A stretch of 60,905 nucleotides of DNA, the filler included, from Jimgerdemannia flammicorona (taxonomy: Eukaryota): NCBI GenBank assembly GCA_003990765.1. It is 3 parts of 3 records of this genome, joined end to end, with 100 filler letters (N's around TTAATTAATTAA, not from the genome) between each part and the next. Parts side by side here need not be neighbours in the genome. Positions count along the whole stretch, not along the records: positions 20,339 to 40,574 come from RBNJ01001727.1; 2 more parts are not named here. One strand, 5' to 3'. This document shows, piece by piece, positions 8,440 through 60,905 of the stretch. The translations under genes were made by a program, and so were the position numbers. The notes beneath the pieces are model-generated. The model was not told the DNA's origin, did no database searches, and saw only the letters and a list, made by a program, of their open reading frames with translations. Numbering within the stretch: position 1 is the first letter of the stretch; each line of letters opens with the position of its first letter.

Positions 8440-11400
8440 GTGAAAGGTGCCTTATCTACTATCTATACCACTGCTAAGTATTCAAGCTTGCATGACTCCT
8501 AGTTCTGTTCTGCTCCATGGATACCTTGGCTTGCATAGAAGATGACATATTTATATCTATCTTTCTTCTGAGCTAGTACTGCTCTAAGTCCTATAGTACT
8601 TAAATCTGTCTGCAGGATGAACTCTAGGTTCCAATCTGGTCTTCTGAGAATAGATGCTTGGGTCAACTTGGTCTTGAGTTCATTGAAGGTTTCTTGATAT
8701 TCCTTGGTCCATTCAAACTTAATCTCCTTCTTCAGTAGTTCATAGTTATATACTATAATGTTAGAGTATCTATTGATAAATCTTCTATAGTAGGAGGTCA
8801 GTCTGAGGGAGGCATGTACTTCTGTAGTTGTTCTGGACCTTGGATAGGCTATAATAGCCTCAATCTTCATAGAGTCTATATAAATTCCAGTCTGGTTGAT
8901 AATGTGTCCAAGGTAAGTGATTTCTTAAGCTATAAACTTGTACTTCTTGGGCTTGTTTAGAGGTCATGCTCCTTGAGCTTCCTGAGAGCTAGCTATATAT
9001 GGTTAATATGATCCCATATAGTATTTCTGAAGATGATTACATCATCAACATAGACAAAGAGCTATTTTCCAATTTCATTACTGAAGACACTATTCATCAT
9101 TCACTGAAAACTTACTAGGGCATTGCACATTCTAAATGGTATTCATAGGTAAACATAGGTAGCATTAGGTATGATGAAGGCTAATTTCTCACTGGCATCT
9201 TGAGTGGGACCAATCTGAATCAAGCCTGAGAACAGATCCAAGGTAGTGTAGTATTTTGCTTTACTTCTAATAGTGGTAAGGATTTCTTAAAAATTTGGCA
9301 AGAGCTGTCTATCCTTCTTAGTAATTGCATTGAGCTTCCTGTAATCAATACAGAGTCTTGGGGCAAATTCTCCAGACTTGCTTTCTTTCTTTGGAGCAAG
9401 GACAATAGGTAAAGCCCAGGGGCTGATATGTTGCTTAATGATACCAACTTCTTCTATTTCTTTGAGTTCTGCTTATAGCCATTCTCTGTAGTTAGGTGGT
9501 ATGGATCTGGCTTTCTGGTAGATGGGCTTAGTATCACCAGTATCAACTTCATAGTAGTACTTAGGTTCTTAATTTTGGATATCCCTGAAGTCTGTAGTAA
9601 GTACTCCTTTATTCTGGTACAAGATCTTGAGAAGTTGTTCTTCTAGGGGAAAGTTTTCTCTAATGGTATATGTATGCTTGTTCTGGTTCTTATCTTCTTA
9701 TGCTTGAGTTCAGTAATCTTGGTAACAGTATAGACTCCTCTTCCAGTAGATCTAAAGCCTTATTTTCCTCTCTTAGTCTTAATGAGTTCTATGGCTTCAA
9801 TGATCTTAGGCTTTTTAACTTCTTGGATCAGCATTTGGTCAATCCTGTCATACTTCTTGACTTTGAATGGAGTGGTGGAGTTGTAATTCCTGACTATAAG
9901 AAAGATCTTACCAATGTAATCAGAGTCAATAACTCCTCCTTCAACTGAGATTTTGCTCTTGATCAGACTACTCCTGGTCTTGATAATTCTAGTATGGTTT
10001 TTTGAACTTGACTCCAATTCTAGTGCCAAGTAGAGTGGTGATTTGTGGTTGAAGGATAGTATCTTGGATGCTAGCAAGGTCTATTCCTATGACTCCTTCA
10101 GTCTTATATTCTAGGATCTTGGCTTTGGGGTAAAACTTCTTAACCTTGAGAGTGATGTCTTGTTCTTGTTTCTCCTCATCATCACTATCAGCTTGAAGCT
10201 CTGGGAACTGGTCCTTTTTTGCTTCAGCTGTTTCTTACTCATACCTTTATTGAAAGATTTTCTGACTTCACTGATACAGGACCAGCTGTCATTTATATAT
10301 ATAGAGCAGTATATCCTAGCACTATAAGGATATCTTTCTTGAGGGGTATTGTCATCAATGATCTTATTCATCTGTAAGCATAGTTGTCTTGCTCTTGTTC
10401 TTGTATACTGAGTATATGAAGACTTCTATTTTGTCTTCATCTCCTTTCTCTATGTCTGGAATTACTACTTGTGGATATTGATAGAGACTCATACCTTTCT
10501 TTCTCTATAGTTGATTTACATCTTCTAGACATTGAGCTCAATGATAGCTTTGGCCTTATAAAGATGAGGATATTATAGTTACATAGTAGTACTTGTAATG
10601 ATTATATACTGAGATAGTAGCTCTTCTGTTCTTGATAGAGACTTCTTGGATCTTGTCTAGGAGGGTGGCTTATGTACCATCTACTGTAACATAGACTATT
10701 TTGGTAGATTCTTAAATATCCTAGCCTAGGTGGTCAATTGTCTTCTTACTTATAAGGCATCCTCTAGCACTAGTATCAATAATAGCATCAAAGATATAAT
10801 CTTCAATCTGACATTAAGTATAGGCTAAGATCTTGCACTAATCTTCAGATTCTTTACCTGAGTCTTCTTATTCATCTTTTTGTATATTGGGAGCTTCTAT
10901 GATATTATACTCTTAGTTCTTAATAGTGATTGCAAGTTCTGCTCTCAGCTGCTATCTGAAGGTGGAGACTTCTGTAGTTATCTCAAAGTAGTATTGATCT
11001 TCTGTTTCTTGTGATCCTTGTAGATATCATACTGATGGACCTTGGTCTTACACAGCTTCTGTCCTTTCTTACTTTCACTTTTATCTGAGACTGGAGTAGT
11101 ATCTCAATAATTTGGCAGGTAGCTTCATCTAACTCAATGTCTTGATCAATCTCCTCAGATTGGGTCTTACTTTGAATAGTGATAGCTGAGATCTTTTTTG
11201 GTCTTTCTACAGGCTTACTATTACTCTTCTTATCATAAGACTTGGACTGGGTTCTGGTATCTTCAGTAACAGAGTAGAATTTGGACTATTCATAGTATTT
11301 TTCATCATCAGTATTACCAATATTCTCAATGACTACTGTATTGGTTTGTTCTCTAGTTCTGGTAGTATTACTTAATGGACTCTATACCTTATTTCAGTTA

Positions 11401-13897
11401 TACAATTCTTTACATAGGGGTCTTCTTTTCTATATTGAAGCATATGATAGTACATTCTTCTATAGTAGCTATAAACTTCTATACTGATCTTCTGTTAGTA
11501 CTTTGTACTTTTCTAATAACATCACTAAGATATATAGTTATCTTGATCAACTGCTGGGTGAGTTCCTCCACTGAGTCAGCTTTGGCCATCTTAGAGATAG
11601 GTCAGAATAGTTGTCTATATTGAGAGCTATGGTGGGTATGATACTGATTGGCTTTGGTGACTCTATCCTGATACTAGTTATCCTTTCTATTGAGTGTTCA
11701 GTAGAGTGTCTAGTAGTCCAATATCTCTGTGCAAAGACCACTTTCTGGTCAAGGATCAGAGTAGCTAGGATAGACTAAATTGCTAGGGTGATTTTATAGT
11801 AGACTTCTTTTAGAGAGATTGAATCAGCTATCTGTTCCTTGAGGGCATTATCATAGCCAGCCGAGACAATCTGGTGTCAGATTTGGGTATAAAATGAGTT
11901 GGGGTCTTCATTGAGTCCTTGACAGATAGTGTTGAGTTGATCTTTAAGAGCTTACTTGATCTCTTCAATATAGTATATAGTTCTGAGAAAGTTCTTCATA
12001 TTGGTAAGTTTAGCTGCACTAGTGTTAACAATGGTGGCTGCATTGAACTTATCTCTAGCAGGTCCTCTGAGGCTGATAGATAGGAGAGTCAATTATGCTT
12101 CAACATTAAGAGCTCATATAGTGGTAAATTGTTCAAAGTCTTCAATAAAGGTCAAGATTGACTCTTTAATAGTAAATCTATAGAATGTGGTTAGATGTAT
12201 TTTATTTTATCTTGAATTCCTACATGGGTAACTCTTGTAGTTAGGGCAGTTATTGTGGTAGTTGTTTATTATTCAGCTTGAAAGTGAAAGATTTTAATAA
12301 TAACACTAGCCAATAGTTATCAAGTTTTCATATAGTAGACACTTAGTTCTCCAAGTACATCACATTCTCTTCAAGATATATCTCTTAGACCAACTATAGT
12401 TTCTTATAAGCAAGTTCTATCAGAGTACCTTCCTAAGGTCTTATAGTCTTCAAACTTCTTAACTTTAAACTATTCTATTGCCTCTTAGATTTACTTATAT
12501 GGAATTAAGTAGAAGACTGAAACTTTGTACTCTTGAGTAGTTGGATACTTGAATACCTGAGTGTTTTTAATACTGACTTTATTTCAAAGGAAATGAGAGG
12601 AATGTTTATACAAAATATAATTCAATAGTTGTTAAGATATAAAGCTAAATATAAAATCCAATAACCAAATAAGATATTTCAATACAAAAAACTTCAGGTT
12701 GTAAGTATAAATTTGAATACCCATATAATTGATTGTATAAGATCACAATACTGAAATAATTTCTGAGAGTTATATAAGGTCAGAATGTTGGAATATTCAA
12801 GTATTTAAACAAATAGTTATATAAACAAATTAGAGTAAAATATTCAAAATCCTGAGGGCTTTGTCATCTTCATTGCTGTCATCAAGGCTAGAGGTCAGGG
12901 ACAGGATGTCTTCAAAGGAAATAAGATCAGCAAATGTTTCTATTTTGTTCACTTTGTATGTGTCAATTAGTGGGATGATGTTATTTCTGGTGACATTATC
13001 TTGTTCAATAGTAGTGAGAAGAAGATCAGAGGCTCTCTAATCTATAACATTTTCCTCCACAAAGTAGAGGACAAAGGTGGGATCTTGAGGGAGTCTTACC
13101 TGGATACTGGGCCCTTGAAATACTGAGATTAATCTTTTCAGAAATTGATCTAGATTGTCCTTGAGAATGAGATTCCAGAACTCTTCTACCTTATTACTTT
13201 TGAGAGTAATAGTGGATTAGGCTTCTGTGGCCACAATAGCTTCTAGTGCATCTATGCAACAGACTAAAGTTTGAGACTCTGGTATTCTCCAAGTTGGAGA
13301 CTGACTAAGATGTATACCTGAAGACCTGGTAGATCTTTTTGGCTACTCTTAATTCACATATATCTATAGGAGTAGAATCTTGTACATATCTCTTAAAGAT
13401 GCCTGAGAGAATTATTGGCAGAGGAGGTTTCTTATTTCATATTTGAGCCACATCCAGAGGTATTTGGTAGTGGTAGTGATCATTGTCTCCATTTCATAGC
13501 AGTAGAGGTTAAAGTGGTAAGAGTCACCAGAGGCTAGAGATCTTTCTGGTTTGGGTTCTCATTGCTTTTCTGATATCTTGAAACATTCTTTCTTAGACTG
13601 GGAAGCCTTAGTGATTCCTGGATCTTACAGTTTGACAAGCAGTAGATATTTTGTTTATAGAGAGTCTTTGAACTATTACAGGATTTTGTAAGTTTTGGTG
13701 GATTTGCTACTACTATAGTTTCCTAGTCCTTCTTTTATATTCCTTGAGATATCTATCTTATGGTCATCAAGACTCATGGTTGGTCATCATTGCTCATCTT
13801 GTAGCCTGGGTGAGTTATGTCTTATGCTCTAATCTGGTGACTTATAAGGAAAGGCTGTCTCTTATGATCATGATACCATTCTGAGATCACTGTTACA
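8440..13897 (-). mobile_element. Degenerate Ty3/Gypsy LTR retrotransposon (gag-zinc knuckle-PR-dUTPase-RT-RNase H), truncated before integrase
   Basis: Protease FDAIIDTSA (about 10770-10795), dUTPase (9760-10080), RT VYVDD (about 9040-9055), RNase H YYRRFI...LTQASILRRPDWNLEFILQTD (8499-8870); candidate LTR start TGTAACAG at 13897. The outer boundary is uncertain. Confidence 0.8.
9760..10080 (-). pseudogene. dUTPase domain within Gypsy pol, between protease and RT
   Basis: TRSSL...ISVEGGVIDSDYIGKIFLIVRN...DRIDQMLI...KRG matches trimeric dUTPase motifs 2 (RSS), 3 (GVIDxDYxG), 4 (RIAQ) and the start of motif 5 (RG). Confidence 0.85.
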
Positions 13898-20238: not shown

Positions 20239-20338
20239 NNNNNNNNNNNNNNNNNNNNNNNNNNNNNNNNNNNNNNNNNNNNTTAATTAATTAANNNNNN
20301 NNNNNNNNNNNNNNNNNNNNNNNNNNNNNNNNNNNNNN
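20239..20338. other. Assembly gap with artificial TTAATTAATTAA spacer
   Basis: N runs flank a 12-mer that puts stops in all six frames; the same construct occurs at 40575-40674. Confidence 0.95.
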
Positions 20339-20392: not shown

Positions 20393-22562
20393 TAAAAAAA
20401 TATATAAGAGTTATATAAGAGGAGTGGAATACAGTAAAGAAAGCTCTAGATTATAAGTATAAATATAAGTATAAGTATAAGTAAGATTTGTAAGTATAAG
20501 TACTCAGTCTGCTTAGCTAGCTCAGTCTACTCAACTGATAGCTGATATTATATATAAGTAGCTATAATATCAGCTATATATATATCATATTAGTTTATCT
20601 GACTGAGCTTGTTCAAACTTGTAAGTATAAGGCTTGCAAAGCCTGGCTTATATAAATCTTATTTTAATTCTACTTATAAATCTTACTATAAATCTCACTT
20701 AAACATTATTATAAACTTTACTCAATTGGAGCTTATACAGAATATACTAAATCTTTAAAGTATATTTACTATTTGTAGTTGTATGATAAGTATCAGTTCA
20801 CTATCTATATATATTTATTTATTCATTCTCTATTCATCTTTAGATAATAAAATTAGTAATAAGAAATTATATACTTATTACTATTAATTAATCTTTAGCT
20901 ATCATATCTTATACTACCACCTTACTACTCTCTATTTTGTTATCTTCAAGCTTACTGACTTCTGTTCTAGGTCCTACAGTTTCTGGCTTCTTCTGTCACT
21001 TATTACCTCTAACTCTCTCTCTAGTTTACTATTCTTTAGCTCACTTACTATTTCCAACTTCTATCTTCCAGTTTACTGCCCCCAGCTCATTTCTCACTAC
21101 TATTCAGTTTACCTCACTACTTTCTAGCTACTTTCTAGCTCTCAGCCTCTCACTCAAGCTCTTAGTCTCTACTATTATCAAATTCTTTTTTGAAATATCT
21201 AAAGATTAAGAACTAAATTTAAGAGAAATTTCTGAACTATTAAATGATATATATATATCTAAGAATATATCAGAGAATATATCAGATATCTCTACTAGTT
21301 TGTTATTGCTAATGAGTATAAGAAAAATAATAAAAATAAAACCTGATAATAGCTAAGTGTGAAATTATATCACAAAGGTAGTTTTATATATTATACTAAT
21401 TATTGCGGTTATAAAGATAGTCAATTATAAGAGTAGTTAGTTATAAAGATAGTTAGTTATAAGTATATATAGTTGAGATTCTAATATAGTCTCATATATC
21501 TCTATTCAAATAGAATTTATAAAGCAAGCTTATTAGTTACAACTATTATATAACTTAAAGCTATATATTGAAGAATAGCAATATTAGTAATTTTAAATAA
21601 TATCTCTGAAAGTATTACAATACTATACTCTTATCTTTCTAGTATACTAAGAATTCCCACTGGTCTAAGAAAAATAATATTATAAGTATAGATAGAATGA
21701 AATTCATAAAGTACTTAGGAGATTATTAGAAAAATAATTTATCAAATTTTATTATTATAAATAGGAATATACTAGTAAGACTTAAGTAATGAGAATTTTT
21801 ATTAATTAATTGCCAACTTCATTATCACTGGGTATCAGTTATTTTCTACTATTGAAAACTCTAACTTTAAGTATCTTCTTCATATATTATGCCCTAATCT
21901 GATCCTTCTATCAACTGATATGATTTCACAAGTTATTCAAATTATTGTAAACTCAAGTAAAAGTAAAACTAGTAGAGCTCAAGTTGAAGATATTACTTAT
22001 ACTTAATTATTAGATATTGGATGTTAATATTAAAATCTTTCTTAGAATAACAGCCTATTAGATTAAAAGATATATAATATTATTTTAGACTTTATAAATA
22101 TCAGTAAAATAATATATATAGGTACTAATCTTATGAAGAGTCTGAAGCTGATAATAGATAATTTGTTACCTAGTAACAATTAAATTATTACTATTATATA
22201 TAATAATGCTAGTAACAATAATACTCTATTTGAGAATCTCTATCATCTACTTACTTATATATACTATTTTAGATATATATTAAATCTTGTTATTTCTCTT
22301 AGTTCTCTTAATAAGCTTATTAGAAAGCTACATAAGTTAATAAAAAAGATTAAAAATTTAGTATAATAATAAGCATAACTAATAAAAGTCTATAAATCCT
22401 TCAGAATTTCCATTTTGAAGTCTCTCTTAGATATTATAATAAAATAGTATTATATATATATAATATTAGTACATACTCTAAAGATTCATAAGATAAGATT
22501 TTGAATTTATTTGTATAGATTTTAGAATATAATTTAAAAGTATTTTAGTACTAAATAAATTA

Positions 22563-22899
22563 AGAGGAGGAAGAAGGCCCAGCGGGAGCCAAGGGAGCGA
22601 ACCCAGAGCCAGTGTCAAAGCGAATGGAAGACATGTGGAAAAGTATGTATAAGGGAGATGAACAAAGAATGTAACTGAAATTGCATCAGCCATTTATTGC
22701 CACGTAAAAACACGGTCCTTATATACAAAATACAACATCCCAAAAGAGAGGACGCGCCACAACTCGGGGCAAACCAAATTAGGAACCACATGACCGCCGG
22801 AGATAGGCGGAGATAAGAGGGGAGCCAATCCCAGTTGCAGGATAAAAATCACAAACAAACACAAATAAAACAAATCCAAATCGAGATTAAAAAACATCC
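22563..22899 (-). repeat. 337-bp inverted partial pLTR (left terminal inverted repeat)
   Basis: Reverse complement of 26709-27045 and of 23051-23387. Confidence 0.95.
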
Positions 22900-23387
22900 T
22901 TGCCCCCTCCGGGGTCTCGCGCTCGCTCCGGGGTCTCGGCCTTACTCTGCTCCCCTCTGCTGCCTTTGGCCCCTCGCTTCGCTCGGGCTCGCTGCAGCTC
23001 GCTCCATTTCGGCCTCACCCCTCACTCATGCTCACCCCTCCGGGGTCTGCAGATGTTTTTTAATCTCGATTTGGATTTGTTTTGTTTGTGTTTGTTTGTG
23101 ATTTTTATCCTGCAACTGGGATTGGCTCCCCTCTTATCTCCACCTATCTCCGGTGATCATGTGGTTCCTAATTCGGTTCGCCCCGAGTTGTGGTGCGTTC
23201 TCCCTTTTGGGACATCGTATTTTGTATATAAGGACTGCGTTTTTATGTGGTAATAAACGGCTGATGCAATTTCGGTTACATTCTTTGTTCATCCCCCTTA
23301 TACACGCTTTTCCACATGTCTTCCGTTCACTTTGACACTGGCTCTGGGTTCGCTCCCTTGGCTCCCGCTGGGCCTTCTTCCTCCTCT
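22885..23387 (+). repeat. 5' pLTR, 503 bp, with TATA-like GTATATAAG (about 23224), AATAAA (about 23252) and the first 72 nt of ORF1
   Basis: Direct repeat of 26543-27045. Confidence 0.95.
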
Positions 23388-24533
23388 GCTGTACCACCTG
23401 CCCTCGGGGCCTCCGTCCTCGTCAACAAGCTCATGGATGAGGTGCTTCCTCCTCCCCCTCCCCCTGCCTTTACCCCTGCCACTGTCTCCTTCGAGACCTA
23501 TGTCTCTTCTGCTATCCTTTCCCTCCCCCTGGACCTTCGTCCTTCTGGTCGTCCGCTCCTCTCTCAGTTCCGGTCGGTTCTTGCCCTCTCCGCCAAGGAG
23601 GCTCGTCTCCGCCGTGATGTCGACATCATCACTCCGCCCACCATCCGCTACTCTGTTCTCCCCGAGGCCCGCCGCCAAGCCCTCTCCGAGGAGGTCCGTG
23701 CCGCCACTGCTGCCGCCAAGCTCGCCGCCGCTGATACCGCCGCTGCTTCTGCCGCCACCACCTCCACCTCCTTCCAACGTGTCTGTGCTGCTTTCATGGC
23801 CTTTGCCTCCTCTTGCCTTTCAGATGCTGCCCCCTTCTGCAGCTTCGCCATCCAAGACGTTTCTTCTGTCGCCGCCGACATCGACGCTATACATTGCTTC
23901 CTCCTCGCTGGCACCTCTTTTGTTGCTCACCTTCACGAGCAGGAGTCTTCTCGTGCTGCCGCCGCTGCTCGCGCCGCCACCACTGCTCCTGTGCCTGCCT
24001 CCCCTGAGGTTTCGGTCTCCGAGGCTATCCATGCCGAAGCTTGTGCTACTGCTCATGCTGAGGTTCGTTCCTTCGCCACTGCCGCCACCAAGGCCCCCTT
24101 CAAGACCTCCGCCAAGACCCCCGCCAAGCCCAACCAGGCTTCGTCGGCCTCTTCCCGGTCCCTCTCCCCCACCAAGGCTTCCTCCTCCGTTCCCCCTGCC
24201 CCCAAGCGTGGCCGCCAACTTGGTTCTCGCCCTGTCGGGGCCTGGCCTTGTGCTGTCTGCTCCGGTCACCTCCACCATGCCTACTGGCACCCGGCCAAGT
24301 CCATCTGTCCTCATGGTGGTGTTCCTCGCACTGCTGCCCCTTCAGCTGCTCGCTCGCCTTTGGCCTCCTCCACCAGTTCCTCCTCCGCCTCCTCTTCTCG
24401 TGCCCCTGAATATAAGGGCTGCATGAAAGCCTGTGGCCGCAAGGTCTGGCACTCTGACGGGGTGTGCTCTCGTTCATCGAGTTTGCCATCTTCAAAAAAA
24501 GTCAGAGGGAAGGAGAAGGCCTCCCGCTCTTAA
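23316..24533 (+). CDS. PLE ORF1, 405 aa, Ala/Ser/Pro-rich with helical core and two C-terminal Cys/His clusters
   Basis: Intact ATG-TAA ORF; CAVCSGHLHHAYWHPAKSICPH and CMKACGRKVWHSDGVC; basic C-terminus. Confidence 0.75.
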   Translation: MSSVHFDTGSGFAPLAPAGPSSSSAVPPALGASVLVNKLMDEVLPPPPPPAFTPATVSFETYVSSAILSLPLDLRPSGRPLLSQFRSVLALSAKEARLRRDVDIITPPTIRYSVLPEARRQALSEEVRAATAAAKLAAADTAAASAATTSTSFQRVCAAFMAFASSCLSDAAPFCSFAIQDVSSVAADIDAIHCFLLAGTSFVAHLHEQESSRAAAAARAATTAPVPASPEVSVSEAIHAEACATAHAEVRSFATAATKAPFKTSAKTPAKPNQASSASSRSLSPTKASSSVPPAPKRGRQLGSRPVGAWPCAVCSGHLHHAYWHPAKSICPHGGVPRTAAPSAARSPLASSTSSSSASSSRAPEYKGCMKACGRKVWHSDGVCSRSSSLPSSKKVRGKEKASRS

Positions 24534-26548
24534 ACTTCCCCCCGGCGTGGTTCTCCCCCGGTGTCCCCATCCCTTCTCAGATTCTGTCGTCACTTCTGGT
24601 GCACCCTGAGTGGTTCCTCATACTGTCCCCCCTTCGCCTTTCCCAGTTACTTGTCCCGAATTTTTGGGTTTATTCTTCTCTTGGAACACTTTTGTCTCCT
24701 CCTTTTTCTTCGGCTGACTGTCCTCTTTCTCCCCTTCAAGTCTTTGTCTTATTCTTGGGTCCTCGCTTTGTTTTTCCTACAACTCCCTCACAATTCTCCT
24801 TCACTGATCTGGCTCGTCTAACATGTTTTCATCGTGCTCTTGACCTTGCCATTTTCTTTCAAGATCGTAGTGAGATGCCCTCTCGCTATTTTGTTCCTAG
24901 TGATTGGGTCCCCCCTCCCAATGTCTCTTCACACTGCGTATTCCTCGACATGGCTTGCTCGCTGTCCGTTCCCGGACGAGCTTGCTCTTGCTTGGTTTCG
25001 GACCATGCCATGCATACCACGCTTAAATCGGTCAAGCAATTGCCTATGTACTTGCTCACAGTCACTGATAAGAATCAGAGTTTTGCACTTATTCCTAAGT
25101 CGCTCTACCTTGATGGCCTTACTGCCCTCCTTCGAGCCATGGCTTACGAGCCCAGTGCTCTTGGATTGGATGAGGTTCTTACTCTTCTTCGGGTTTCTCT
25201 GGCTCACGCTAGATCGCTTTCGGACTCCCTGTTCGCGAACCCCATTTTTAACTTCTTCCAGGACTCTTTGTCCTCTCCAGATGTTTCTCTTCTGGTTTTC
25301 TATGCTCTTCCTAAAGTTCACAAGCCTATTTTGGCTTGGCGTCCTATTATGGCTGCTTATAGTTCTTCTACCACTGAGATTTTGAAGTAGTTATCCCGCT
25401 TCTTTCTCTCCTGGATGGCTCTCTTACAACACCATCTTGGGCCTGAGTATACTATTCTTCATGATACTCAGGAGCTCGCCCTTCTCTGCTCCACCATTGT
25501 GCCTGTTCACCGTTTCTCCCATTTGGCCTCTGGTGACTTCTCTTCCTTCTATACTGCTATTCATTTTGATGAGATCAATGATTGCCTTCGCTTCTTGGGT
25601 TCCTTGGTTTTTCCTTTGGATTCCCCAGTTTCGCTGGCTTCCATTGTTGAGCTTACGCTCCTCGTCTGCAGCTCCAATTATTTTGAGTCGGCCCTTGGCT
25701 CCTTCCACCAGACTTCTGGTATTGCTATGGGTATGAATTGTGCCCCCACTCTTGCCAACCTCATTGGCCTGGCCCACGAATTGCGTGCGTTATATGATAT
25801 TACTTCACCTCTTTCCATTGCATTCCAGGCTGGGGATATCTTCTTTCACCGATACATTGATGACTTTATTGTCTTCGCTGTTGCTAGTGTTGATATCTCT
25901 AGTATATTCCTAGGCATCTACCCTCCCCACCATTCTATTACCTGGGTGTGTGGTATGACTAGTATTCCCTTTTTGGACCTTTCCATTTCTCTTTCTCCTT
26001 TCCAAACTGTTGTTTATTCTCGTTTTCCCCATTCCCAACAGTTCCCTGACTTCTTGTCCAACCATCCTCGTCGCACTCTTCTTGAATGTATTCGGGGTGA
26101 GGCTCATTGTCTTGCACTTTGCTGCTCCCGTCGTTCTGATTGGGTGTCTGCTGTTCGGGTTCTTGGCAACTTCATGGTCCATCATCGTGCCTACCCTATT
26201 TCTATCATTCGTGATCTGCTTGCTTCTATTGAATGGTCTGTTGTTTGCTCTACCCTTCTCTCTCCTCTTTATCTCCCCTTCCTTCCCTCTCTCCCCCCTT
26301 ACCCTCTCCATACCCCCTCTTCTTTCCCACCCCCGATTCTCGTCGTACCATTTGATCATGCTCACTGGGTCGCTCAACGCCCTGATACCATCCTGCGCTC
26401 TTCTCTTTCACGCCATGGACTTTCATCTCTTTCCCGACGCCCTCTGATTGCTCGTTCGCATCTTCCTTCTATTTCTTCTTCAATCCATCGCTCTCGCTTT
26501 GCGTTTTCGTCACCTTCTGGTACCTCCGGTTCTGCCGGAGAGGATTAA
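24464..26548 (+). pseudogene. PLE ORF2 reverse transcriptase, one in-frame TAG at 25388-25390, no GIY-YIG domain
   Basis: TDKN, FYALPKVHKP..WRPI, SGDFSSFYTAI, SNYF...GIAMG..CAPTLANL, RYIDD, PFLDL, SNHP; ORFs 24464-25390 and 25415-26548 share one frame, which is -1 relative to ORF1. Confidence 0.9.
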
Positions 26549-27045
26549 AAAACATCCTTGCCCCCTCCGGGGTCTCGCGCTCGCTCCGGGGTCTCGGCCT
26601 TACTCTGCTCCCCTCCGCTGCCTTTGGCCCCTCGCTTCGCTCGGGCTCGCTGCGGCTCGCTCTATTTCGGCCTCACCCCTCGCTCATGCTCACCCCTCCG
26701 GGGTCTGCGGATGTTTTTTAATCTCGATTTGGATTTGTTTTGTTTGTGTTTGTTTGTGATTTTTATCCTACAACTGGGATTGGCTCCCCTCTTATCTCCG
26801 CCTATCTCCGGTGGTCATGTGGTTCCTAATTCGGTTCGCCCCGAGTTGTGGTGCATCCTCCCTTTTGGGATGTCATATTTTGTATATAAGGACCGCATTT
26901 TTACATGGTAATAAACAGCTGATGCAATTTCAGTTACGTTCTTTGTTCGTCCCCCTTATACACACTTTTCCACATGTCTTCCATTCACTTTGACACTGAC
27001 TCTGGGTTCGCTCCCTTGGCTCCCGCTGGGCCTTCTTCCTCCTCT
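26543..27045 (+). repeat. 3' pLTR, 503 bp, starting with the 15-bp inverted repeat GATTAAAAAACATCC...GGATGTTTTTTAATC
   Basis: Direct repeat of 22885-23387; IR arms at 26543-26557 and 26709-26723. Confidence 0.95.
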
Positions 27046-29218
27046 ATATTCAAATAGTGAATATATTATATACTATGAATATATAACTAAGTAATATATA
27101 TATCTAAAAATATATAGTAATAATTTGAATTAATTTACTAATTTCTTAAGTCTTTTACCAAAGTAATAACTATAATATCAGCTTTGAAGTATTCTACAAT
27201 AGCATAAGTAGCCAGAATTAATGAGAAATAAGACTAGGCAGATATCTAGTTCTGGAGTACAGAGATATGATAGTGATTTTTTCTAAAGTTTTAAGTAGTA
27301 TAGTGATGTTTACTGAGGAGAAATATTATACTGAACTTTAGATCAGATTATTTAATAGATAGCAGGATATTTGATTGTGAGGAGTACTTTAATATAGGGT
27401 AAGAGAAGAGTTTTATACAGATGTCTAAACATTAGCTAGGTGAGTATGAGATTCTTAGTAACTTCTGAATAATAATTAAAAATTATCTAAGAGTGGTGAG
27501 AAAGACAGATAGTGAGCAGAGTTGGTGGGAGAATTTGTAAGAATAGTTGATAGACTATATTAGTAATGAGTAGCTTACTATTAGGTAAGTCTTAGTAGTA
27601 TAGGTAGATTTGGCTGAATACTAGTTATATATATTTAAGGAGAGTAGGCAGATGAGTTTAGAGGAGTGTCTATTATAGTGAGAAGAGTTGATAAGAGATA
27701 TTCTATCTAGTTAGTAAGTAGGGTAGAACTTTTAGAGAGATTATTATCATTATTTAGTAAAAGAGATTTATAAGAAGAGTAGCAAAAGAGTTGTAATAAT
27801 TAATAACTTAATGATCTTTAGTTATAAAGAGGTGAGAGAGAGCTCCTTCAGAGAGATTGAGTAAGAATGAGGCTCTTGTATTTTATATGAATTAGATTGA
27901 TTTAATAATAAATATAGAAGAAGAAAAAAAAAAAAAATCTACAATAGTAGCTATTATTATACTATTTAATTAGCTATATGATTATCTTGAAGATATTATT
28001 GATATATATTAAACTGGTGAATATTTTAATTAAATATATATAATTTTGAAAGTAATTTTATTTTAAGTAATTGAGAAGTAATATATATATATTTTATTTA
28101 TTTTTTATTTTTTTATAAATAATGCTTACTACTGCTGAGAATATATATGAAATTTCTAAAATATTACACTATTATATAGTATAGCTTCAGTCTTAGATCT
28201 ATATACTAATATATATTATTTTTATTATAAGTAATGAAAAAAATTCTTAATTAATAAATAGAAGAATCAGATGGAATATATGTATTTGGAAAAAGGAGTA
28301 TAAGTCTGTTAATGCTATTATTATATCTTCAATATTCTATAATATTAATAATTTTATCAACTCAATATACATATATATAAGAAGAAATAGTATATTGATA
28401 TAAATGATGGGCTTGAATAATGAGTGGTATTATTATGTATTTTGATTGGCTTGATTGATTTTTATTCATATTTCTCTATTTTAGTTATTTGTTAGAGAAT
28501 TTAGCTGATTTTTATATAGATATACTGAATTGATAGCAATAAAATCAGTTAGTATATCCTAATCTTTCATGAATAGATTGTGATTATCTTGCTATTTTGG
28601 CAACATTTGTTCAATTTGAATGTATTTTTTCTATTACTAGTGAGCTGGTGACTGAATATCAAAACAGCTTATATATAAATATAATTTGTATATATATATA
28701 TCTGGATTCTTAGTAGTCTTTAGATATTTTCCACTTTCAATTACTCTGAATATTATCCAAATATTATCTGAATCATTTTTTCAAAGTTGGGTTTAGGGTT
28801 AGGTTCAGGAGTCAGGTTCAGAGTCAGGTTTAGAAGTTAGATTCAGAGTTGGGTTAAGGATAAATAATAGGTTAGATTAAAGACATATGATATATATTTC
28901 TGGGTCAGGTTAAAGATGGGTGATGTATAATTCTGGATCAGATTAAAGATGGGAGATGTATATTTCTAGGTCAAGTTAAAGACAGATGATATATATATCT
29001 GGATTAGATTAAAGATAAGTAATGTATAATTCTTAGTTAGATTAAAAATGAGTAATATCTAATTCTGAGTTGGCTGTTTTATGGGTCAGGTTTCAGGTTA
29101 ATTGGGTTGGGTTTGTGGAGCACTAATTCTATCTCATCTCAATCATCCCTATTATTCATTTTAATACTAATATCAACATTAACTCTAACTCTAATCTCAA
29201 CTCAAACCTCAATAGTTC

Positions 29219-38220: not shown

Positions 38221-38248
<28 letters not shown>

Positions 38249-39364
38249 GTTTTACAGACCTGAAGTCCTGTGGATTTTATTGGAAGAGAACCTAGACTAT
38301 ATAGGCCAAAACCCTCCCCCACCATCCCCCAAGCACTACACCCCCATTAAACCTAGGCTAGCTATTGTCTAGTAGCTCAACTATATCAGATGCAGCAGGG
38401 CAAAGTTGCCCACACCTCATTCTATGGACCATGCTCTTCCTACCACCAGAGAGTAACAAACATATGCTTTAGGCACATACCTGAAACCCTAACATATGTA
38501 CAAGGCTATGCCTGAGTCAATTTGCATAGCTTAAAGTATAGAACAGTAGGTAGGACTTAGTTCTCTCTGATGAGATGAGTAGAGAACTTACATGTGAAGT
38601 AAGAGGAGACCCCTAATACCCCACTACTCAAGTCTGTAGGCCTTGATCATGTTATCATATCAGCTCTTAATTCTAGTTGAGTGCAGCCAAGATGCTTGAT
38701 CTGAGTAGTTTTGGACCCTTTAATCACTCTTAATAATTAGAGCTCAACTCTACAAATTGTCAAAAGCAGCTGAGAGTAATACCTACCATCTAACCACTCT
38801 GTACTAATCAGAAGGCCCCACTGATACAGTACCTGCCCCAGCCCCAATGACTGCCCCTAGTCTGAGACCCTACTGGTTTACTATAATTACTCTTTCTTCT
38901 ATCTATAATGGTCATCTCTCCTCTCATCCTGACTCTACCTGAAAAGTAGTTACTTATGCCAGAATTACACTTGCTGAAAAGCTTGCCAAAGCTCAGAGGG
39001 CCCCACCACAGATACTGGAGACCTGTAGGTAATCTATACTAGCACTTGATACTTAAGATCAGCTGACTCTATATATAGCTCATAATATATCAGATATTAC
39101 CTCATTAATAATAGTAAAGGAAGAAGGTACTATATCAAAATGGATATACTTCAGATATAGCTGAAGGTACTAGAAACTATGAAAAAGTATAAAAAACACT
39201 AATCCAATAATAATAAAGGAGCAACTTAATACTATTACCTCTCTCTCACTATATCCTTATAGGTATAGCAAATTAACTTAAGATAAAGAGGGTAATAATA
39301 GAGGAAAGGAGACTCAGAAGATTGTCTACCAAATCTTGTAACTAGTAAGATAGTAGAGAAAGAG
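38221..39364 (-). mobile_element. Non-coding polyadenylated retroposon, about 1.15 kb, copy 1
   Basis: Poly(T) then TTACAGACCTGAAGTCCTGTGGATTTTATT; colinear with 47351-48526 and inverted relative to 39457-40574. Confidence 0.8.
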
Positions 39365-39456
39365 ATTATCTTTATCTTTTCTCTAGTATTCCATTTACTT
39401 TATACTATAAACCTACTCTTATAATAGAGTTATCTACTATAAATAAAATCCACATC

Positions 39457-40574
39457 CGCTCCTTTCTCCACTACCTTACTGGTCACAAGGTTTGGTAGGT
39501 GACCTTCCAAGTCCCCTTTCCCCTAATATTACCCCCTCTACCTTAGGTTGGTTTGCTGTGCCTGCAGGGGCATAGTGGGAGGAGGGCAATGGTGATGAGT
39601 TGCCCCTTTATCGGTGTCAGATCGGTGCTTCCTCCACTTTTTCGCGGATTCTGGTGCCTTCAGCTGCATCTGGGGAGTACCCATTTTGGTGTGGTGCCTT
39701 CTTCCTTTTGCCATCGCCAACAAGGAGTTGTCTCGGTGTGTCTTGGACTACATAGGGAGTCGGCCGACCTTGGGCGTCAAATGCTCAGTGTAGGTTACCT
39801 GCAGGTCCTCGGTGCCTGTAGTAGTGCCCTCTGGCTTTGGCGAGCTTCCCGGCGAGCGTGGTTCTGGCGTAGGTAACTACTTTTCGGGTGTTGTCAGGAT
39901 GAGAGGGGAGATGGCTGTCACAGATAGGTGGAAGGGCGATTATGGTGAACCAGTAGGGTGCCAGGCTGGGGGCAGTCATCGGGGCTGGGGTAGGTGCTAC
40001 TTCGGTGGGGCCTTTTGATTGGTGCAGCATGGTTAGGTGGTAGGTGTCACTATCGGCTTCTTTTGGCGGTCAGCAGGGTTGGGCCCCAGTCATCAGGGGG
40101 GGGTCAGGAGGCCCGAGGCTACCCATTTCAGGCATCTTGGCTGCACTCAACTAGAACCGGGAGCTGACATGGCAACGTGATCGAGGCCTACAGGCTTGAG
40201 TAGTGGGGTATTGGGAGTTTCCTCCCGCCTCATGTGTAAGTCCTTTACTCACCTTGACTGGGAGAACTAGGCCCTACCCACCATGTTGTGCTTTGATGAG
40301 GGTTTTTTATTTGCTTGTCATTCTCTTTGGAGTGGCAGGGGCTATTCTATTCAGCTTGGGTATGACCTTGTACATATATTGGGTTCTCAGGCATGCACTT
40401 TCAGTCATTGGCATATGGTTGGGTTTCCCCTAGTGGTAGGGAGAGTATGGTGCGCAGAATGAGGTGCGGGCTTATCAGCTCTACTGCACCTGGCATGGTT
40501 GAGCTGCTGGACAATAGCTAGCCTAGGTTAATGGGGGGGCAGTGCTTGGTGGGTGGTGGGGGAGGGTTTTGGCC
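39457..40574 (+). mobile_element. Same retroposon, copy 2 (least mutated), head-to-head with copy 1, 3' end in the gap
   Basis: Reverse complement of copies 1 and 3 over about 1.1 kb; retains many CpG. Confidence 0.8.
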
Positions 40575-40674
40575 NNNNNNNNNNNNNNNNNNNNNNNNNN
40601 NNNNNNNNNNNNNNNNNNTTAATTAATTAANNNNNNNNNNNNNNNNNNNNNNNNNNNNNNNNNNNNNNNNNNNN
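40575..40674. other. Assembly gap with artificial TTAATTAATTAA spacer
   Basis: N runs plus 12-mer at 40619-40630. Confidence 0.95.
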
Positions 40675-40743
40675 AAAAAAAAAGAAAAAAACGAATTTTA
40701 GTTATAGTATCCCCGAACACAAGAGAACGACAGCCTGTACTTA

Positions 40744-43503
40744 CTTGGTTGACAACAGCCTCTAAAAATGGTTCGGCAATCTCAACCAATTTCCGCTTAG
40801 CCATGATCTCGGCAATCTTGGCAAACGTACTCTTCTCGTTGTCCTCGTAGGAGCATAGACGGAGGAACGGGACGACACAGACATGGCCAGATCTCAGGTG
40901 CGGTGCAAACATCGGAAGATTCTCTAGCAATGCAAAAGGCAATCTTCCGAGACGCGTCACGTTCCGCCAGACGAGGCACGTAATGGCCGACCTCAGAAAT
41001 GAGAGACCGTCAGGCAGATCGATGTGGTTGGTGAATTGGATGATCGGATGCAAGTTCTTGTACTGAGTCAAGATCTCTATGTCGAGGTTTTTAATGTCTC
41101 CAGCGGGAGGAAAACGTTCTTGCCTCAAAAAAATTGAATCTTGAACATTAGGAGCAACGCACACCTGGTATGATAGAGCCCGCGCAATTTCTCCAACTAA
41201 TGTCGGGTTATCATACATCAAATTTGGCAGGTGTTGCTGGAGTAGAAGTCCGTATGCAGTTTCGCCGCGCTGGACTTGGCGGATCAGCCAATGAATAATC
41301 TTGGTCTCGACAACGGAGTCGCTCACGTAGGAGAAAAAAGCGTTTGGGCCATCGTCGGATTCGAAAATCCAAGAGAAAATACAACGGCGGTAGTTTCGGT
41401 ACTCGGCAAAAACAGCATCGAGATTATTGAAGTTGAAGAGGAAGATAATCGGAAAGCTGATCAGTTGGATATCAATACGGGGAAACCGATACCTCGGGAT
41501 ATATTGGTGGAGAATTTGATAAATTTCCAAAGTGAGATCTGGCGCATTGGACACTGCGGCCCACCCACACCGGCGTTCTTGAGCCATCCTAGAAAGTAGC
41601 AACAAGTAGCGGCAGCCGTTGAACGCCTTCTGTACCAAATTAGAAGCTCCCATGACGAGCTCATGATGCCCTTCGACAGGTTGGTTCTCCGTCGGCATTG
41701 TTGTGCGTAGGAAAACTCTCACTCTATTGGGCTGATTCTCCTTGGGCTGGTTCTCCTTGGGCTGGTCCTCTTCTGCCTTCATCCCGGACCATTCTAAGTC
41801 GATCAAATTGGGCCTATCATCTCGGAGCCCACCAAGCCTGCTGATGCACCAGAAATCTTCGAGTTCGTAGTCGGAATTCTTGTCCTTGTTTGGTTGAGAC
41901 CATAGCTGTACGGTTACGCTTGTAATGACGAGGATGGCACCACTGGCAGTAACTGCAAATTTGCTCTGATTTTTGAAGGGAGTTTTGTCGCTGACTGGCT
42001 GAAACGAAAACTTTTTCACAGACTCGTCCCTGCCCACGACGCAACAGACATTCTGTCCGCTGAGGTGCTCAATTTGCAGGGACCATCGGCCATTTTGAAA
42101 GGGAGCTGACAGCTGGGATTCCAGCTTCAGTTCAAGATTTGCGTCTGAGTTTTCCGCCTTGGGCTTAGGCACCAACGTTCGGATGGCGATTCCCCCCTCC
42201 TCCTGCTTGAGGCTGTAGTGTTTCTGGCTATTGAGCCAACAATCCATCGTGCGCTCGACTGGATCAAAGAGTCGTAGCCCTGTACTCACGTCGTAAACGT
42301 GGATGAAATTGGAAGCTACGATAAAGAGCTTGTCGCCTGCGTCGTGAAAGCACAGTTTGTCAGGTAGGATCTTGGCTCTCCATCGCATAATCTCGAGACC
42401 GGTCTTCATGAGTAGGATATGCACGGTTACATAACGGCTACCCAGATGTTCAAGAGCGTCGAATGAGTTTAGAGTAGTGCAAGCGCGTGGGGATAAGCGA
42501 ACATCATAGAAACACTACAATACTAAACATACCATGGAATAGTAGTCTTGTTAACATTTGAGACAACCGCAAGCCGAGTCCCATCCGAGGACAAGGCAAA
42601 ACGCGGTCGCCACAACCGATTCATTGCGCCAATATTGTGCAGCAGCGATTTTCGGAGCTGGTACGATTGCTCGTCAAACTGCGGGATGGACTGGTACATC
42701 AACGATAGGCGATCTTCCTTGCGGTGCAGAGCAAAGACATTGAGATCATAGTCAAGGGCTCGGATAATCTTGTCGATGTCGAAGTAGATTGTACGGACGA
42801 CAGTGAAATCCTCCAGGCGGTATATGCGCACGTAGGGCGGATAGGAAACGACCATAGTTTCGCAATCGAGGATATTGTCATGGTCAAAGAAAACGATGCC
42901 AATACGTAGGTTGAGCTTGGAAATGTTATCGTTTGCTTGGGGAGTATTTTCTCCTCGTTCAAGGCGCGACAGGACCAGTGAACCTGGCAATTCTTTGTTG
43001 GTGATGCAGCCATATTCGGAGGTGAACTTGATAACGAGAGGCGAAAACTGGTCGTTCTTCTGTGGCGCAAACCAATCGGTTTCGGTTTCGGAATACCAGC
43101 GCTTGAAGGCGGTTCTGACGTGGCCTTGCATCACTTCCTCGTCGAGCTCCTTAAAGTCGTCATTGTTTTTGGAAGAAGGTATAAATGACACGGCGCAGAC
43201 GTCTCCTGTATCCGCGACGGCGATGGAATAGCGAATATCGGAAGTGGCATAGAGATCGATTCTTTTTTCGTGCTGGGCGTTTGTATTATATAGCATCTCG
43301 ATCGACTGGTCACCCTGCGGGGCAGGCCAGATCCGAATCACCCCTTGGCTGCCTTCTTCGCTTAACGATGCCACATAGTTGCCGTTTCTTGATAGCTTGA
43401 CGCACAGAATTTCTTCATCTCCTCCAGGTGAAAGGTTTGATGCCGACGAGGCGCCCGGTATTAGGCATTGCATTTCGATGCCGTTGTTGTTTGGGTCCGT
43501 CAT
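40744..43503 (-). CDS. Beta-propeller (WD40-like) N-terminal part of a TRP-like channel, paralog A; 3' exons cut by the gap
   Basis: Exon 1 (43503 to about 42533) and exon 2 (about 42437-40744) are colinear with paralog B, with the same intron positions (shared DRLSLMYQSIPQ, KTGLEIMRWR, YRNYRRCIFSWI, EIAEPFLEAVVN). Confidence 0.8.
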
Positions 43504-43538
43504 TTTGAAATTTGGAACAAGTTTAGAGTGACGGATGA

Positions 43539-43686
43539 GATGTTAGGGCAACGTTGGCAAGGGATCAATGCTAGGTCACTGTTGGCAAGGGATTAAATGC
43601 TAGGGCAATGTTGGCAAGGGGATCAAATGCTAGGGGCACTGTTGGCAAGAGATTAAATGCTAAGGCAATGTTGGCAAGGGATGAGG
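43539..43686. repeat. 29-30-bp tandem repeat x5 (ATGCTAGGGCAATGTTGGCAAGGGATCAA) just upstream of the paralog A start
   Basis: Directly visible; lies 36-183 bp before the ATG at 43503. Confidence 0.85.
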
Positions 43687-47328: not shown

Positions 47329-48526
47329 TATATATATATATATATATTATTTTACAGACTCAGAGTTCTATGGATTTTATTAGAAGAGAATCTAGACTAT
47401 ATAGGTCAAAACCCTTCCTCACCACCCACCAAGCACTGCTCTCTCATTGAACCTAGGCTAGCTATTATCCAGTGGCTTAACCATACTAGGTACAGTAGAG
47501 CCTATAGTGGCCTATATCTCATTCTGCATACTATACTCTCTCTACCACCAGGGGGAACTTAGCTATATACTAATAACTGAAAGTGTATATCCCAAACTCC
47601 AATGTATATATAAGACTACATCTGAGCCAAATAGAATAGTCTCTGCCACTCTAAGTAGAAATAACAGATAAAGAAAAAACTCTCCTCAAGGCATAAAATA
47701 GTGGGTAGGGCCTGGTTCTCCTAAGTGAGGTAAGTAGAGGACTTACATGTGAGGTAAGAGAAGACCCCCAATATCCCACTACTCAAGCTTATAGGCCTTG
47801 ATCATATTGCTACATCAGCTCTCAGTTCTAGTTGAGTATAGTCAAGATGCCTGATATGGGTAGCCTCAGGCCTCCAGCCCCCCCTAATGACTGGGGCACA
47901 ACTCCATGAATTGCCAAAAGAAGTCAAGGGTGATACCTATCACCTAATTACTCTGCACTAATCAAAAGACCCCACCAAAGCAGCACTTGCCCCAGCCCCA
48001 ATAACTGTCCCCAGTCTGGTACCCTACTGGTCTACTATTATTGCCCTTCCTCTTATCTATAACAGCCATCTCTTCTCTTATCTCAATAATACCCAAGAAA
48101 CAGTCACCTATGCTAGAACTGTACTCACTGAGAAGCTCACCAAAGTTAGAGAGTCTCACTATAGACACTGAGAACCTGCAGATAACCTATACTAGGTACT
48201 TGATACCCAAGGTCAGCTAACTCTCTATGTAATCTATAACATACTGAGATGATATCTTATTGGTAATAGTAAAAGGAAGAAGGTACTGCACTAATATAGA
48301 TATACTCTAGATATAGCTAAAGGTACCAGAAACTATGAAAAAGTAGAGAAGATACTGATCTAATACCAATAAAGGAGTAACTCATTACCATTGCCTCTCT
48401 CCCACTACTCTGCAATAGGTATAGTAAACCAATTCAAGATAGAGAGGATATTAGTTGTGGAAAGTAGACTTGGAAGATTGCCTACCAAACTATTGTAACT
48501 GGTAAGATAGTAGAGAAAGGGGCCTC
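47329..48526 (-). mobile_element. Same non-coding retroposon, copy 3, inserted in the Gypsy with an 18-bp TSD
   Basis: TSD AGAGACTAATAATATATA at 47311-47328 and 48527-48544; tail now (TA)n. Confidence 0.85.
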
Positions 48527-59000: not shown

Positions 59001-60819
59001 TACAATGGGCTGGCCCGCCTCGGAATTCTCCATATTGAAAGCATTATCCGTATGGAAATCATTCTCGGTATTGAAGGCCTTCGTCTGGTCCATGTCGATT
59101 GTAACTGGCTGCTCGTCGCGAAGCCGGCCAGGCTTGGGGATGCACCAAAAGTCTTGAAGCTCGTAGTCGTCCGTAATATTTGGTGGAGCCCACAGCTGTA
59201 CGGTTATGGTTGTAACAACGAGGACGGCGCCTTTGGTGGTAACTGCAAATTTACTCTGTCCATTAAAAGGGGCATCATCGCTGGACGGCTGAAATGAGAA
59301 CCTTTTTGTGTCGGAAGCAGGCGGATCCGACATACTTTTTACGCAGCAGACATATTGATTCAAATTCTCATCAAGTTCAATTTGCAGCGACCATCGAGTG
59401 TCTTCAAACTGTACTTCCCCGTCATCTTTTGTCACAGTCCTCAGCGCGAGACTATTCTCCGTTGTGGGTTTGGGCACCAGCGATTCGATCGAGATACCTC
59501 CCTCTTTTTGCTTGAGGCTGTAGTGTTTTTGGCTATGGAGCCAGCATTCCGTTGTGCTCTCGACGGGAGTCATGATCCTTAGGCCTGTGTTGACATCATA
59601 GACATGGATACATTTGCAGGCTACGATGACTAGTTTATCGCCTTCGTCAAGGAAGCTTATTTTTTTCGGTATAATCTTAGTCCTCCATCGCATAATCTCG
59701 AGGCCGGTCTTTGTGTGTAGAATGTGCACAGTTATGTACCGGCTTTCCAGTACGTAGAAGAGGGGACGAATCAGTGAAGAAACGGCAAAAAAAGGATGCT
59801 CGAAAGTAAGCAGATACACGATAAGCAAAATACCTATTGATGACAGATTTGGATTTGGTAACGTTCGAGAGAACAGCAATTCTGGAACCGTCGAGGGACA
59901 AGGCAAAACGGTACTGCCAGAGACTATCCATCGGCGCAATGTTGCGCAGCATTGACTCACGAAGCTGGTACGAATTTTTGTTGAGCTGGGGGATGGACTG
60001 GTACATAAGCGATAAACGATCCACTCGACGGTGTAAGACGCCGACATGGACGTCGAGGTCAAGGGATCGAACGATATTGCGAATGTCAAAGTAAATTGTA
60101 CGGGAGACGGTAAGATCTGACACGTTGTACACTTGCAAGTAAGGCGGGCAACAGAGAAACATACTTTCGCGGCCAAGCAGATTATCGTTGTCAAATAAAA
60201 CGGTGCCGCTGCGCAGTTTGTATTGCTCGACCTGCGCAGTCGTATCCATCAATCGTCCTTGCTCAGCGCTATCGTAATCCGGCGTGCCAGGGGCCTCGCG
60301 GTTCATGCCGTCATTGATATCACTTCTCCCGAACCTGACGACGATTGGCCGAAACCTGTCGTCCCCACGTGGTGCGAGCAAGTTGCTTCCGGTATACCAA
60401 CGTTTGAAGGCGCCTAGGATTTGGCCTTTAATCACCGGCATGTCGAAGGACTTGTAGAGGTCATTGTGGGGATGTTCCAAAGGTACGAATGACACGGCGC
60501 AGATATTCCCGGTGTTGGCCACGGTGATCGATATGTTTACGTTCTCGCCAGTTTCGATGATTTCGATCTTTTTCTCGTGAAGGGCGTGCTTGTTTTCGAG
60601 CTCCTCGGTTTGCTCATTACCCTCAGGTGCCTTCCAAATTCGGACTACCCAATGTTCGCCCTCTTTGCTTAACGAAGCCACGTAGTTGCCGTCTCTTGAT
60701 ATATTGGCACACAGGACTTTTTCAGCATTGCTCGGTGAAGGACTAGACGACGATGACGACGACAAAGGGGTTGATGTGATGCCTAGCGATTCGATGTCGC
60801 GCTCATTGGAATCGGTCAT
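56015..60819 (-). CDS. Beta-propeller + TRP-like ion channel + SH3 protein, paralog B, multi-exon
   Basis: Exons 60819-59834 and about 59742-58044 (propeller/linker); TM exons KWQAFARLRFF...NYLELCAFILP...LLVWFRL, LMQLRVSKSIGIFVAVI, PFLIVLAVAFMGFVQAFY, pore region FSDVFFFI, S6 GVFAVVTNILLFNVLIAL (56928-56997), TRP-helix-like RLWLL...IADIEL...DWFP; SH3 VEALFDY...GWWYG...GLFPSNFV (about 56175-56335). Confidence 0.8.
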
Positions 60820-60905
60820 TATTGAGGGTTTGAATGTGTTGGGAGTGATAGAGGTGAGGGACTGACAGGCGGATACGATACTGGTGTAGAGGTTACAGGG
60901 GGGGG

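Follow-up and report, generated by a model that had tools for sequence, protein, structure and literature searches.

How does a retroelement that encodes a reverse transcriptase (RT) and no recognisable nuclease come to lie within a chromosomal region? The question is raised by a Penelope-like element (PLE) at positions 22563-27045 of a 60,905-nt stretch of DNA from Jimgerdemannia flammicorona (assembly GCA_003990765.1), in the part taken from record RBNJ01001727.1; the whole stretch is referred to below as the window. A preliminary description of the locus had proposed an endonuclease (EN)-deficient PLE at a non-telomeric site, and its identity as an EN-less PLE is very probably correct. Published examples of EN-less, non-telomeric PLEs exist; what appears to be new is the combination with an inverted terminal repeat and with the absence of both a hammerhead ribozyme and a telomeric tract. 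By analogy with known systems, the element resembles an insertion of an EN-bearing (EN+) PLE minus the EN. We lean slightly towards twin priming, in which the RT used the two ends of a break of other origin as primers.

Layout, terminal repeats and age of the copy

The boundaries of the element are exact, and it forms a GC-rich island within flanks of ~25% GC. Self-comparison revealed one terminal repeat (pseudo-long terminal repeat, pLTR) in three copies, two direct and one inverted and partial. The direct copies, the 5′ pLTR (22885-23387, plus strand) and the 3′ pLTR (26543-27045, plus strand), are 503 nt each and 95.2% identical. The first holds the initial 24 codons of open reading frame (ORF) 1 and a TATA-like TATATAA (23225-23231); by alignment, the second runs from the RT stop codon to position +72 of the ORF1 start. 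The inverted partial copy (22563-22898, minus strand) comprises pLTR nt 168-503 (336 nt) and is ~93% identical to both direct copies, with which it forms the overall layout of an inverted pLTR followed by pLTR-ORF1-ORF2-pLTR. The class feature of PLEs, pLTRs formed by partial tandems with an optional inverted pLTR, is present in the element. The boundaries and ORFs of the preliminary description stood, and to them we add what it had overlooked: the presence of pLTRs, with an inverted one at the 5′ end, and a -1 frameshift overlap.

In an alignment of the three repeats, the inverted and 3′ copies, and hence both ends of the element, terminate at one and the same pLTR nucleotide, +72 of ORF1 (ATG at 23316), while the internal copy continues into ORF1. 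A short hairpin lies before this end of the 3′ pLTR, as does a pyrimidine tract, and the end itself is the presumed RT start site. Outward-facing ends at one nucleotide fit two RT starts at one site on the RNA, on opposite target strands. The inverted and direct pLTRs have 14 bp in common at the inversion junction (22885-22898), where pLTR nt 1-14 is the reverse complement of nt 168-181, an inverted repeat built into the pLTR itself. In the minimum-free-energy fold, this 14-bp stem closes a ~153-nt loop (z of -3.6 for the whole pLTR); within pLTR nt 1-181 (22885-23065), the stem surrounds a GC-rich loop with CTCGC-type repeats.

Between the two direct pLTRs there are 24 differences, each a transition and none a transversion; many fall at CpG sites, and on the plus strand most are G/A. 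Decay of the 3′ and inverted copies is transition-only, CpG-biased and G>A-skewed on the plus strand, which is what a strand-polarised process resembling methylation or repeat-induced point mutation would give. The observed/expected ratio of CpG is 0.72 in the element versus 0.08 and 0.0 in the flanks, so the element is much younger than its target. Among 44 highly conserved RT columns, eight deviate in the element: one is an artefact at the N-terminal Met, two are common with the closest relative and five are unshared. These five therefore speak for a copy that is dead but little decayed. The label "near-intact" held for the youth of the copy (pLTRs ~5% diverged) and not for its integrity, given one stop in the RT and 5/44 altered conserved columns; judged from its sequence, the copy is dead but young and recently inactivated.

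No target-site duplication (TSD) of the element's age is present, in agreement with what had been described. A near-match of 23 nt at the exact junction (22540-22562 versus 27046-27068) has 16 matches, 4 transitions and 3 transversions, a score reached by 53 of 5000 random flank pairs (borderline). This best candidate was rejected as a TSD because it carries three transversions, while there are none between the pLTRs. A long TSD was not found either: local alignment of 660-nt flanks scored 66, as did or exceeded 25 of 200 shuffles.

The reverse transcriptase and its missing nuclease

ORF2 (24458-26548, plus strand) encodes a PLE RT with N motifs, DKN, RT1-7 and a thumb/C-terminal extension, and no endonuclease domain. 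The claim of a complete RT with one stop was borne out: the frame is interrupted by a single in-frame TAG (25388-25390), the DKN, LPKVHK..WRPI, GIAMG and YIDD motifs are in place, and so are all three catalytic Asp residues (D360, D468, D469). The first Met is residue 140, behind the conserved N-terminal motifs, and the tail past YIDD measures 228 amino acids (aa). Searched with X at the stop codon, ORF2 had 2369 matches at E ≤ 0.001 among 1.8 billion representatives, and the 150 listed were PLE-type RTs. An AlphaFold model (pLDDT 82, 63-sequence alignment) had TERT as each of its top four fold matches (Z 14.3-17.2; Foldseek E 7e-9), the best with Z 17.2 and a root-mean-square deviation of 3.7 over 316 residues. 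The predicted TERT-like ring spans residues ~73-605, leaving ~70 N-terminal and ~90 C-terminal residues outside it.

The reported lack of a GIY-YIG nuclease was upheld by every search. EN+ PLEs (Penelope/Poseidon, Neptune, Nematis, Hydra, Naiad and Chlamys) have this domain on the N- or C-terminal side of the RT. Pfam yielded RVT_1 as the sole family for ORF2 and none for ORF1. A hidden Markov model (HMM) of the PLE endonuclease was built from 18 EN+ matches, those with a GIY-YIG pattern among 161 proteins examined; leave-one-out controls recovered 18/18 at E ≤ 2e-14, plus one further protein. Run against six frames of the 61-kb window, it gave a best E of 0.18 and nothing in the ORFs of the element. 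As the HMM was built from C-terminal ENs only, a very divergent Chlamys-type EN was covered by Pfam and a motif scan alone. The GIY-YIG is absent from the fold of the predicted ORF2 model as well.

The closest relatives with a whole C-terminus among the matches listed, P0002 (46%) and P0003 (33%), have tails of 222 and 226 aa and no GIY-YIG; the other close matches are fragments, uninformative on the C-terminal tail. The first EN+ match is at rank 20 of the search, and the 18 EN+ proteins have 306-403 aa after the catalytic DD. Because the ORF2 tail is about as long as those of its relatives rather than those of EN+ proteins, the lack of a recognisable nuclease looks, at the level of sequence, like a trait of the lineage and not a truncation.

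Two RT trees were built, from 151 RT cores (after dropping two fragments and three duplicates) and from 65 RT cores (a hand-picked subset plus 19 metagenome loci). Both are unrooted, have long branches, contain a query of unusual composition and are composed of sequences other than named Coprina, Athena, Chlamys, Naiad, Hydra, PLE-X or TERT references. The query groups with the EN-less P0002, P0003, P0005 and P0006 (support 94-96), and both the EN+ rows and a group of long, single-ORF EN-less sequences lie apart from this group. P0006, from the Glomeromycota fungus Racocetra fulgida, is the nearest named relative; this and the CpG-biased repeat decay suggest that the lineage of the element is probably fungal. 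The EN+ rows fall together on a separate branch (SH-aLRT 99), and forcing the query lineage together with EN+ PLEs was rejected (AU test, p = 0.008). The PLE clade had been left to RT phylogeny: an EN-less lineage apart from EN+ PLEs was obtained. A metagenome scan yielded 40 related loci, all distant (23-32% identity), and none of the 19 placed in the tree falls in the query's branch, so that no close relative with flanks came to light. A search of sequencing runs listed one soil-metagenome run, with a word share of 0.08, and no RNA data set.

ORF1 had been called intact, and it is: the frame is open from the ATG at 23316 to the stop at 24533 (plus strand, 405 aa; the search queries began one codon upstream of this ATG, so that residue numbers there are one higher). 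It is predicted to form long Ala-rich helices followed by a disordered low-complexity Ser/Pro/basic half, which holds two Cys/His clusters (Cx2Cx4Hx4H and Cx3Cx5Hx4C). It had no Pfam family and no homologue among 8000 candidates; profiles made from 10 related ORF1s and from 38 N-termini did not match it, and its single-sequence model (pLDDT 47) had no Foldseek match at E ≤ 0.001. Atlas matches were all below 0.9, with a weak zf-CCHC as the best family lead (cosine 0.77). Its predicted function is probably that of a gag-like nucleic-acid-binding or oligomerisation protein. A role as HUH nickase, considered for its HLH triplets and a GCTC-rich pLTR hairpin, was rejected, as there is no room for the fold.

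An element autonomous for cleavage, with a nuclease hidden in ORF1 or the ends of ORF2 or with a host nuclease recruited by them, is very unlikely in our view. The two Cys/His clusters and two HLH triplets would suit it, as would the isolation of ORF1: other EN-less PLEs have ORF1s and N-termini that weakly match each other but are not related to it. Against it, a motif scan of ORF1 found no PD-(D/E)xK, HNH, GIY-YIG or LAGLIDADG pattern; the HLH triplets lie in a predicted long helix and in a Cys/His cluster predicted to be disordered, with no alpha/beta fold predicted; and the zf-CCHC lead is the only one at family level.

Integration at an internal site

The element was said to lack telomeric repeats inside it and at its junctions, and there are indeed zero TTAGGG/CCCTAA hexamers in 22400-27200. 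The longest sense-strand (CCCTAA)n match in the element is 6 nt, within the background of 6-10 nt in 30 shuffles. No decayed tract of TTAGGG or its common variants was found at either junction (the host's own repeat may differ), and the window holds no telomere array. The claim of a non-telomeric site stands within the window, with at least 22.5 kb and at least 33.8 kb of non-telomeric sequence on either side. Gaps at 20239-20338 and 40575-40674 (each 44 N, 12 nt and 44 N) mean that contiguity across them is not guaranteed. At 28790-29067 lie tandem arrays of 12/25-nt and 33-nt units, with the window's only near-TTAGGG dimer at 28793, 1.7 kb from the element. No hammerhead was detected in the element by Rfam or by a structural scan, even allowing one core mismatch. 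The structural scan found sense-strand hammerhead-like folds in 6/40 related loci; Rfam also missed those (20 loci scanned), and an atypical ribozyme in the element is possible.

The target on the left (21770-22562, plus strand) is an AT-rich, heavily CpG-depleted relic in which we recognised hAT-transposase-like motifs by eye; on the right (27046-27230, plus strand), the translation appears to continue the same relic, before another decayed repeat. The motifs on both sides follow what we take to be hAT order, so that the reported insertion in a dead hAT agrees with inspection by eye, while Pfam, PDB and protein searches of the flanks found no hAT match.

The preliminary description had assumed that dispersed PLEs always carry a GIY-YIG nuclease. 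This premise is too strong: EN- PLE-X families occur genome-wide in Chara and in 28S ribosomal DNA (rDNA) of Selaginella, and MjPLE01 is likewise EN- (Craig et al. 2021, PMC8557442). Like the element, PLE-X and MjPLE01 integrate away from telomeres without an EN (PMC8557442). PLE-X is Chlamys-derived, with a CxC motif, canonical hammerheads and, in spike mosses, a 28S rDNA target; no hammerhead was found in the element. MjPLE01, of the kuruma shrimp, is Neptune-like, unlike the probably fungal lineage of the element (PMC8557442). Craig et al. leave open by which route EN-less PLEs integrate away from telomeres and hold that EN cleavage very likely determines tandem or inverted pLTRs (PMC8557442).

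EN-less PLEs of fungi have been published as telomeric (PMC13159263, PMC4522978) and hammerhead-bearing (PMC4209133). Our literature search, thin on subscription papers, turned up no fungal PLE described as EN-less, hammerhead-less and non-telomeric and as carrying an inverted pLTR. Compared with Coprina (EN- PLEs of fungi, plants and protists), the element has no telomeric repeats or hammerhead, carries an inverted 5′ pLTR and occupies an internal site. Coprina-1_Alen of Ascochyta lentis resembles it in its EN-less DKN-RT-thumb architecture, its coil-rich disordered ORF1, its two ORFs, its direct terminal repeats of 400-500 nt and its length of ~4.5 kb (PMC13159263). The rotifer Athena is also EN-less, with two ORFs separable by a frameshift (PMC8557442). 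Its attachment to telomeres proceeds via a hammerhead and reverse-complement telomeric tracts, neither of which was found in the element.

These parallels bear on whether the copy belongs to an ordinary telomeric Coprina-type family and is a rare stray, was internalised from a chromosome end or is subtelomeric, which we consider improbable. The two-ORF EN-less layout is shared with the telomeric Coprina-1_Alen (PMC13159263), and some relatives are telomere-linked. The related metagenome loci served as a control here. Six of them (L006, L007, L016, L017, L018 and L036), all two-ORF, -1-frameshift EN-less units, have a CCCTAA tract of 10-14 nt close to or at the start of ORF1, and L005 is the L006 unit truncated at its 5′ end, with (CCCTAA)3 as a cap; the structural scan found no hammerhead in any of these seven. 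Against such an origin, the RT start site and the junctions of the element lack a telomere tract, no hammerhead was found, the flanks look like one interrupted relic, and host-type genes lie within 6-30 kb. The inverted pLTR also implies priming on both sides, which is impossible at a chromosome end.

Twin priming at a pre-existing break would account for the layout as follows. A read-through RNA would span pLTR-ORF1-ORF2-pLTR and be translated into a fused ORF1-RT protein of ~1,080 aa by way of a -1 frameshift. Position +72 of ORF1 would be the fixed internal start of reverse transcription, with no homology to the target, and the 3′-OH on either side of a double-strand break, or of nicks lying close together, would be extended. 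Having no nuclease, the element would depend for these 3′-OH ends on a break already there or on a trans-acting nuclease. The long cDNA would end at pLTR nt 1 and the short cDNA at nt 168, the complementary last 14 nt of both would anneal, and fill-in by the RT or by host repair would leave an inverted pLTR plus pLTR-ORFs-pLTR with no TSD. Later CpG-biased transitions would then have killed the copy.

In vitro, the protein of the EN+ Poseidon (Anolis) both cuts and extends the two strands; RT starts lie inside the ORF, equally for either strand and with no target homology, and the hammerhead is dispensable (PMC11167929). The fixed internal start and AT-rich target of Poseidon are matched by the presumed RT start and the target of the element (PMC11167929). 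Relative to EN+ Penelope, Poseidon and Neptune, the element differs in having two ORFs and no GIY-YIG, TSD or hammerhead. Pen2a of A. vaga has two pLTRs, a pLTR that contains the first codons, and an inverted-pLTR overlap of 15 bp, close to the 14 bp seen here; its TSD is 9 bp, and some A. vaga copies have none (PMC3846280). Nuclease-independent L1 insertions at breaks provide a precedent, in that the RT inserts at a break site and, as at the element, leaves no TSD (PMC1920257). For L1 this is a side pathway of an EN-bearing element, whereas here it would be the sole one. Twin priming in L1 likewise yields an inversion joined by microhomology.

The inverted arm might instead have formed when a single cDNA folded back at the 14-bp stem and primed itself, with only one target end primed, an account that we hold to be highly improbable. 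The stem is real, and self-priming at junction palindromes has been proposed for PLEs (PMC3846280). Such a cDNA would have no reason to stop at the RT start nucleotide, as its template continues into ORF1, and a nuclease-free 3′-OH would still be required, so that only the second step changes.

The cut may also have been made by the nuclease of another element acting in trans, such as an APE-type LINE (long interspersed nuclear element) ORF2, an EN+ PLE or a stand-alone GIY-YIG, with the PLE supplying only the RT; this we regard as unlikely. The target is AT-rich, the kind that PLE and L1 nucleases prefer (PMC11167929), LINE-like relics were seen by eye in the window, and terminons carry stand-alone GIY-YIG ORFs (PMC6431247). 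The absence of a TSD at the element and of a GIY-YIG in the 61-kb window speaks against it, as do reports that the PLEs in fungal genomes are exclusively EN-deficient and that Athena was not seen to be cross-mobilised by the Penelope EN (PMC3846280).

Several points weigh against twin priming at a break of foreign making. The argument for it is drawn from geometry, since there is a single copy and no empty site, and the 16/23-nt near-duplication may represent a TSD that has become distorted. The fold search hardly reached ORF2 residues outside 82-615, and an ORF1 with no homologue and a pLDDT-47 model could conceal a cryptic nuclease. Most EN-less related loci also have no clear telomere tract or hammerhead by the same scans (many are short contigs, most with no flanks), so the absence of both is a weaker marker.

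The proposal of a lineage that integrates without its own nuclease gains from an apparently lineage-wide lack of an EN and from a junction geometry that fits break priming, while one copy cannot show dispersal of the family. That this lineage lost the GIY-YIG, the telomere-pairing tract and the hammerhead, and spreads in chromosome interiors solely by twin priming at breaks, is a tentative extension to which we give somewhat less than even chances. If true, the RT, and not the endonuclease as proposed (PMC8557442), would be what produces the tandem/inverted pLTR layout, and the element would serve as a living model for a telomerase-like RT that heals breaks. An EN-less, ribozyme-less and tract-less element with an EN+-style layout makes both the integration route and the origin of the layout testable, and bears on the action of telomerase-like RTs at internal breaks. 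The surprise is limited by the single dead copy and by precedents at the level of the class.

Frameshift, circular relatives and neighbouring sequence

A 76-nt stretch (24458-24533, plus strand) belongs to both ORF1 and ORF2, the latter in the -1 frame; it is a putative site of programmed -1 frameshifting, with an in-frame slippery heptamer A AAA AAA at 24494-24500 followed by a hairpin. A -1 overlap was seen in 12/12 two-ORF elements (the query and 11 hand-picked, non-redundant loci). An in-frame slippery heptamer is present in 11/12 (10/11 loci and the query), compared with 18 per 3605 upstream codons, an enrichment inflated by the Lys-rich overlaps. The fold downstream of the heptamer in the query is not significant alone (13/100 shuffles were equally stable). 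As overlap and heptamer recur in related two-ORF loci, an ORF1-RT frameshift fusion is likely, judging by sequence conservation. The ORF1s of two-ORF relatives weakly match N-terminal extensions of single-ORF EN-less PLEs (P0008, P0046 and others; E 1e-5 to 5e-3), which suggests that, in those relatives, one helical module is either fused or frameshifted.

Among the 40 related metagenome contigs, 15 (L001-L004, L006, L007, L014, L016-L020, L026, L027 and L036) close into circles of ~3.1-5.5 kb through terminal overlaps of 60-132 nt, most with an intact EN-less ORF1 and RT. One record (L010/L011) is a near-perfect tandem of a 3196-nt unit. The circular contigs are probably collapsed tandem arrays or pLTR-flanked copies, and they may be extrachromosomal circles.

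Elsewhere in the window, the minus strand at 9001-12000 holds a decayed element of Ty3/Gypsy-like type, in which protease, dUTPase and RT were matched. Two paralogous host genes, ~75% identical, are located at 40600-43540 and 58000-60905 (minus strand); Pfam gave no confident family for them, and they have a weak WD40-like N-terminal part. A decayed repeat forms an inverted pair at 38247-40538 and 47347-48490, and a third, more AT-rich copy is also present (72-82% alike).

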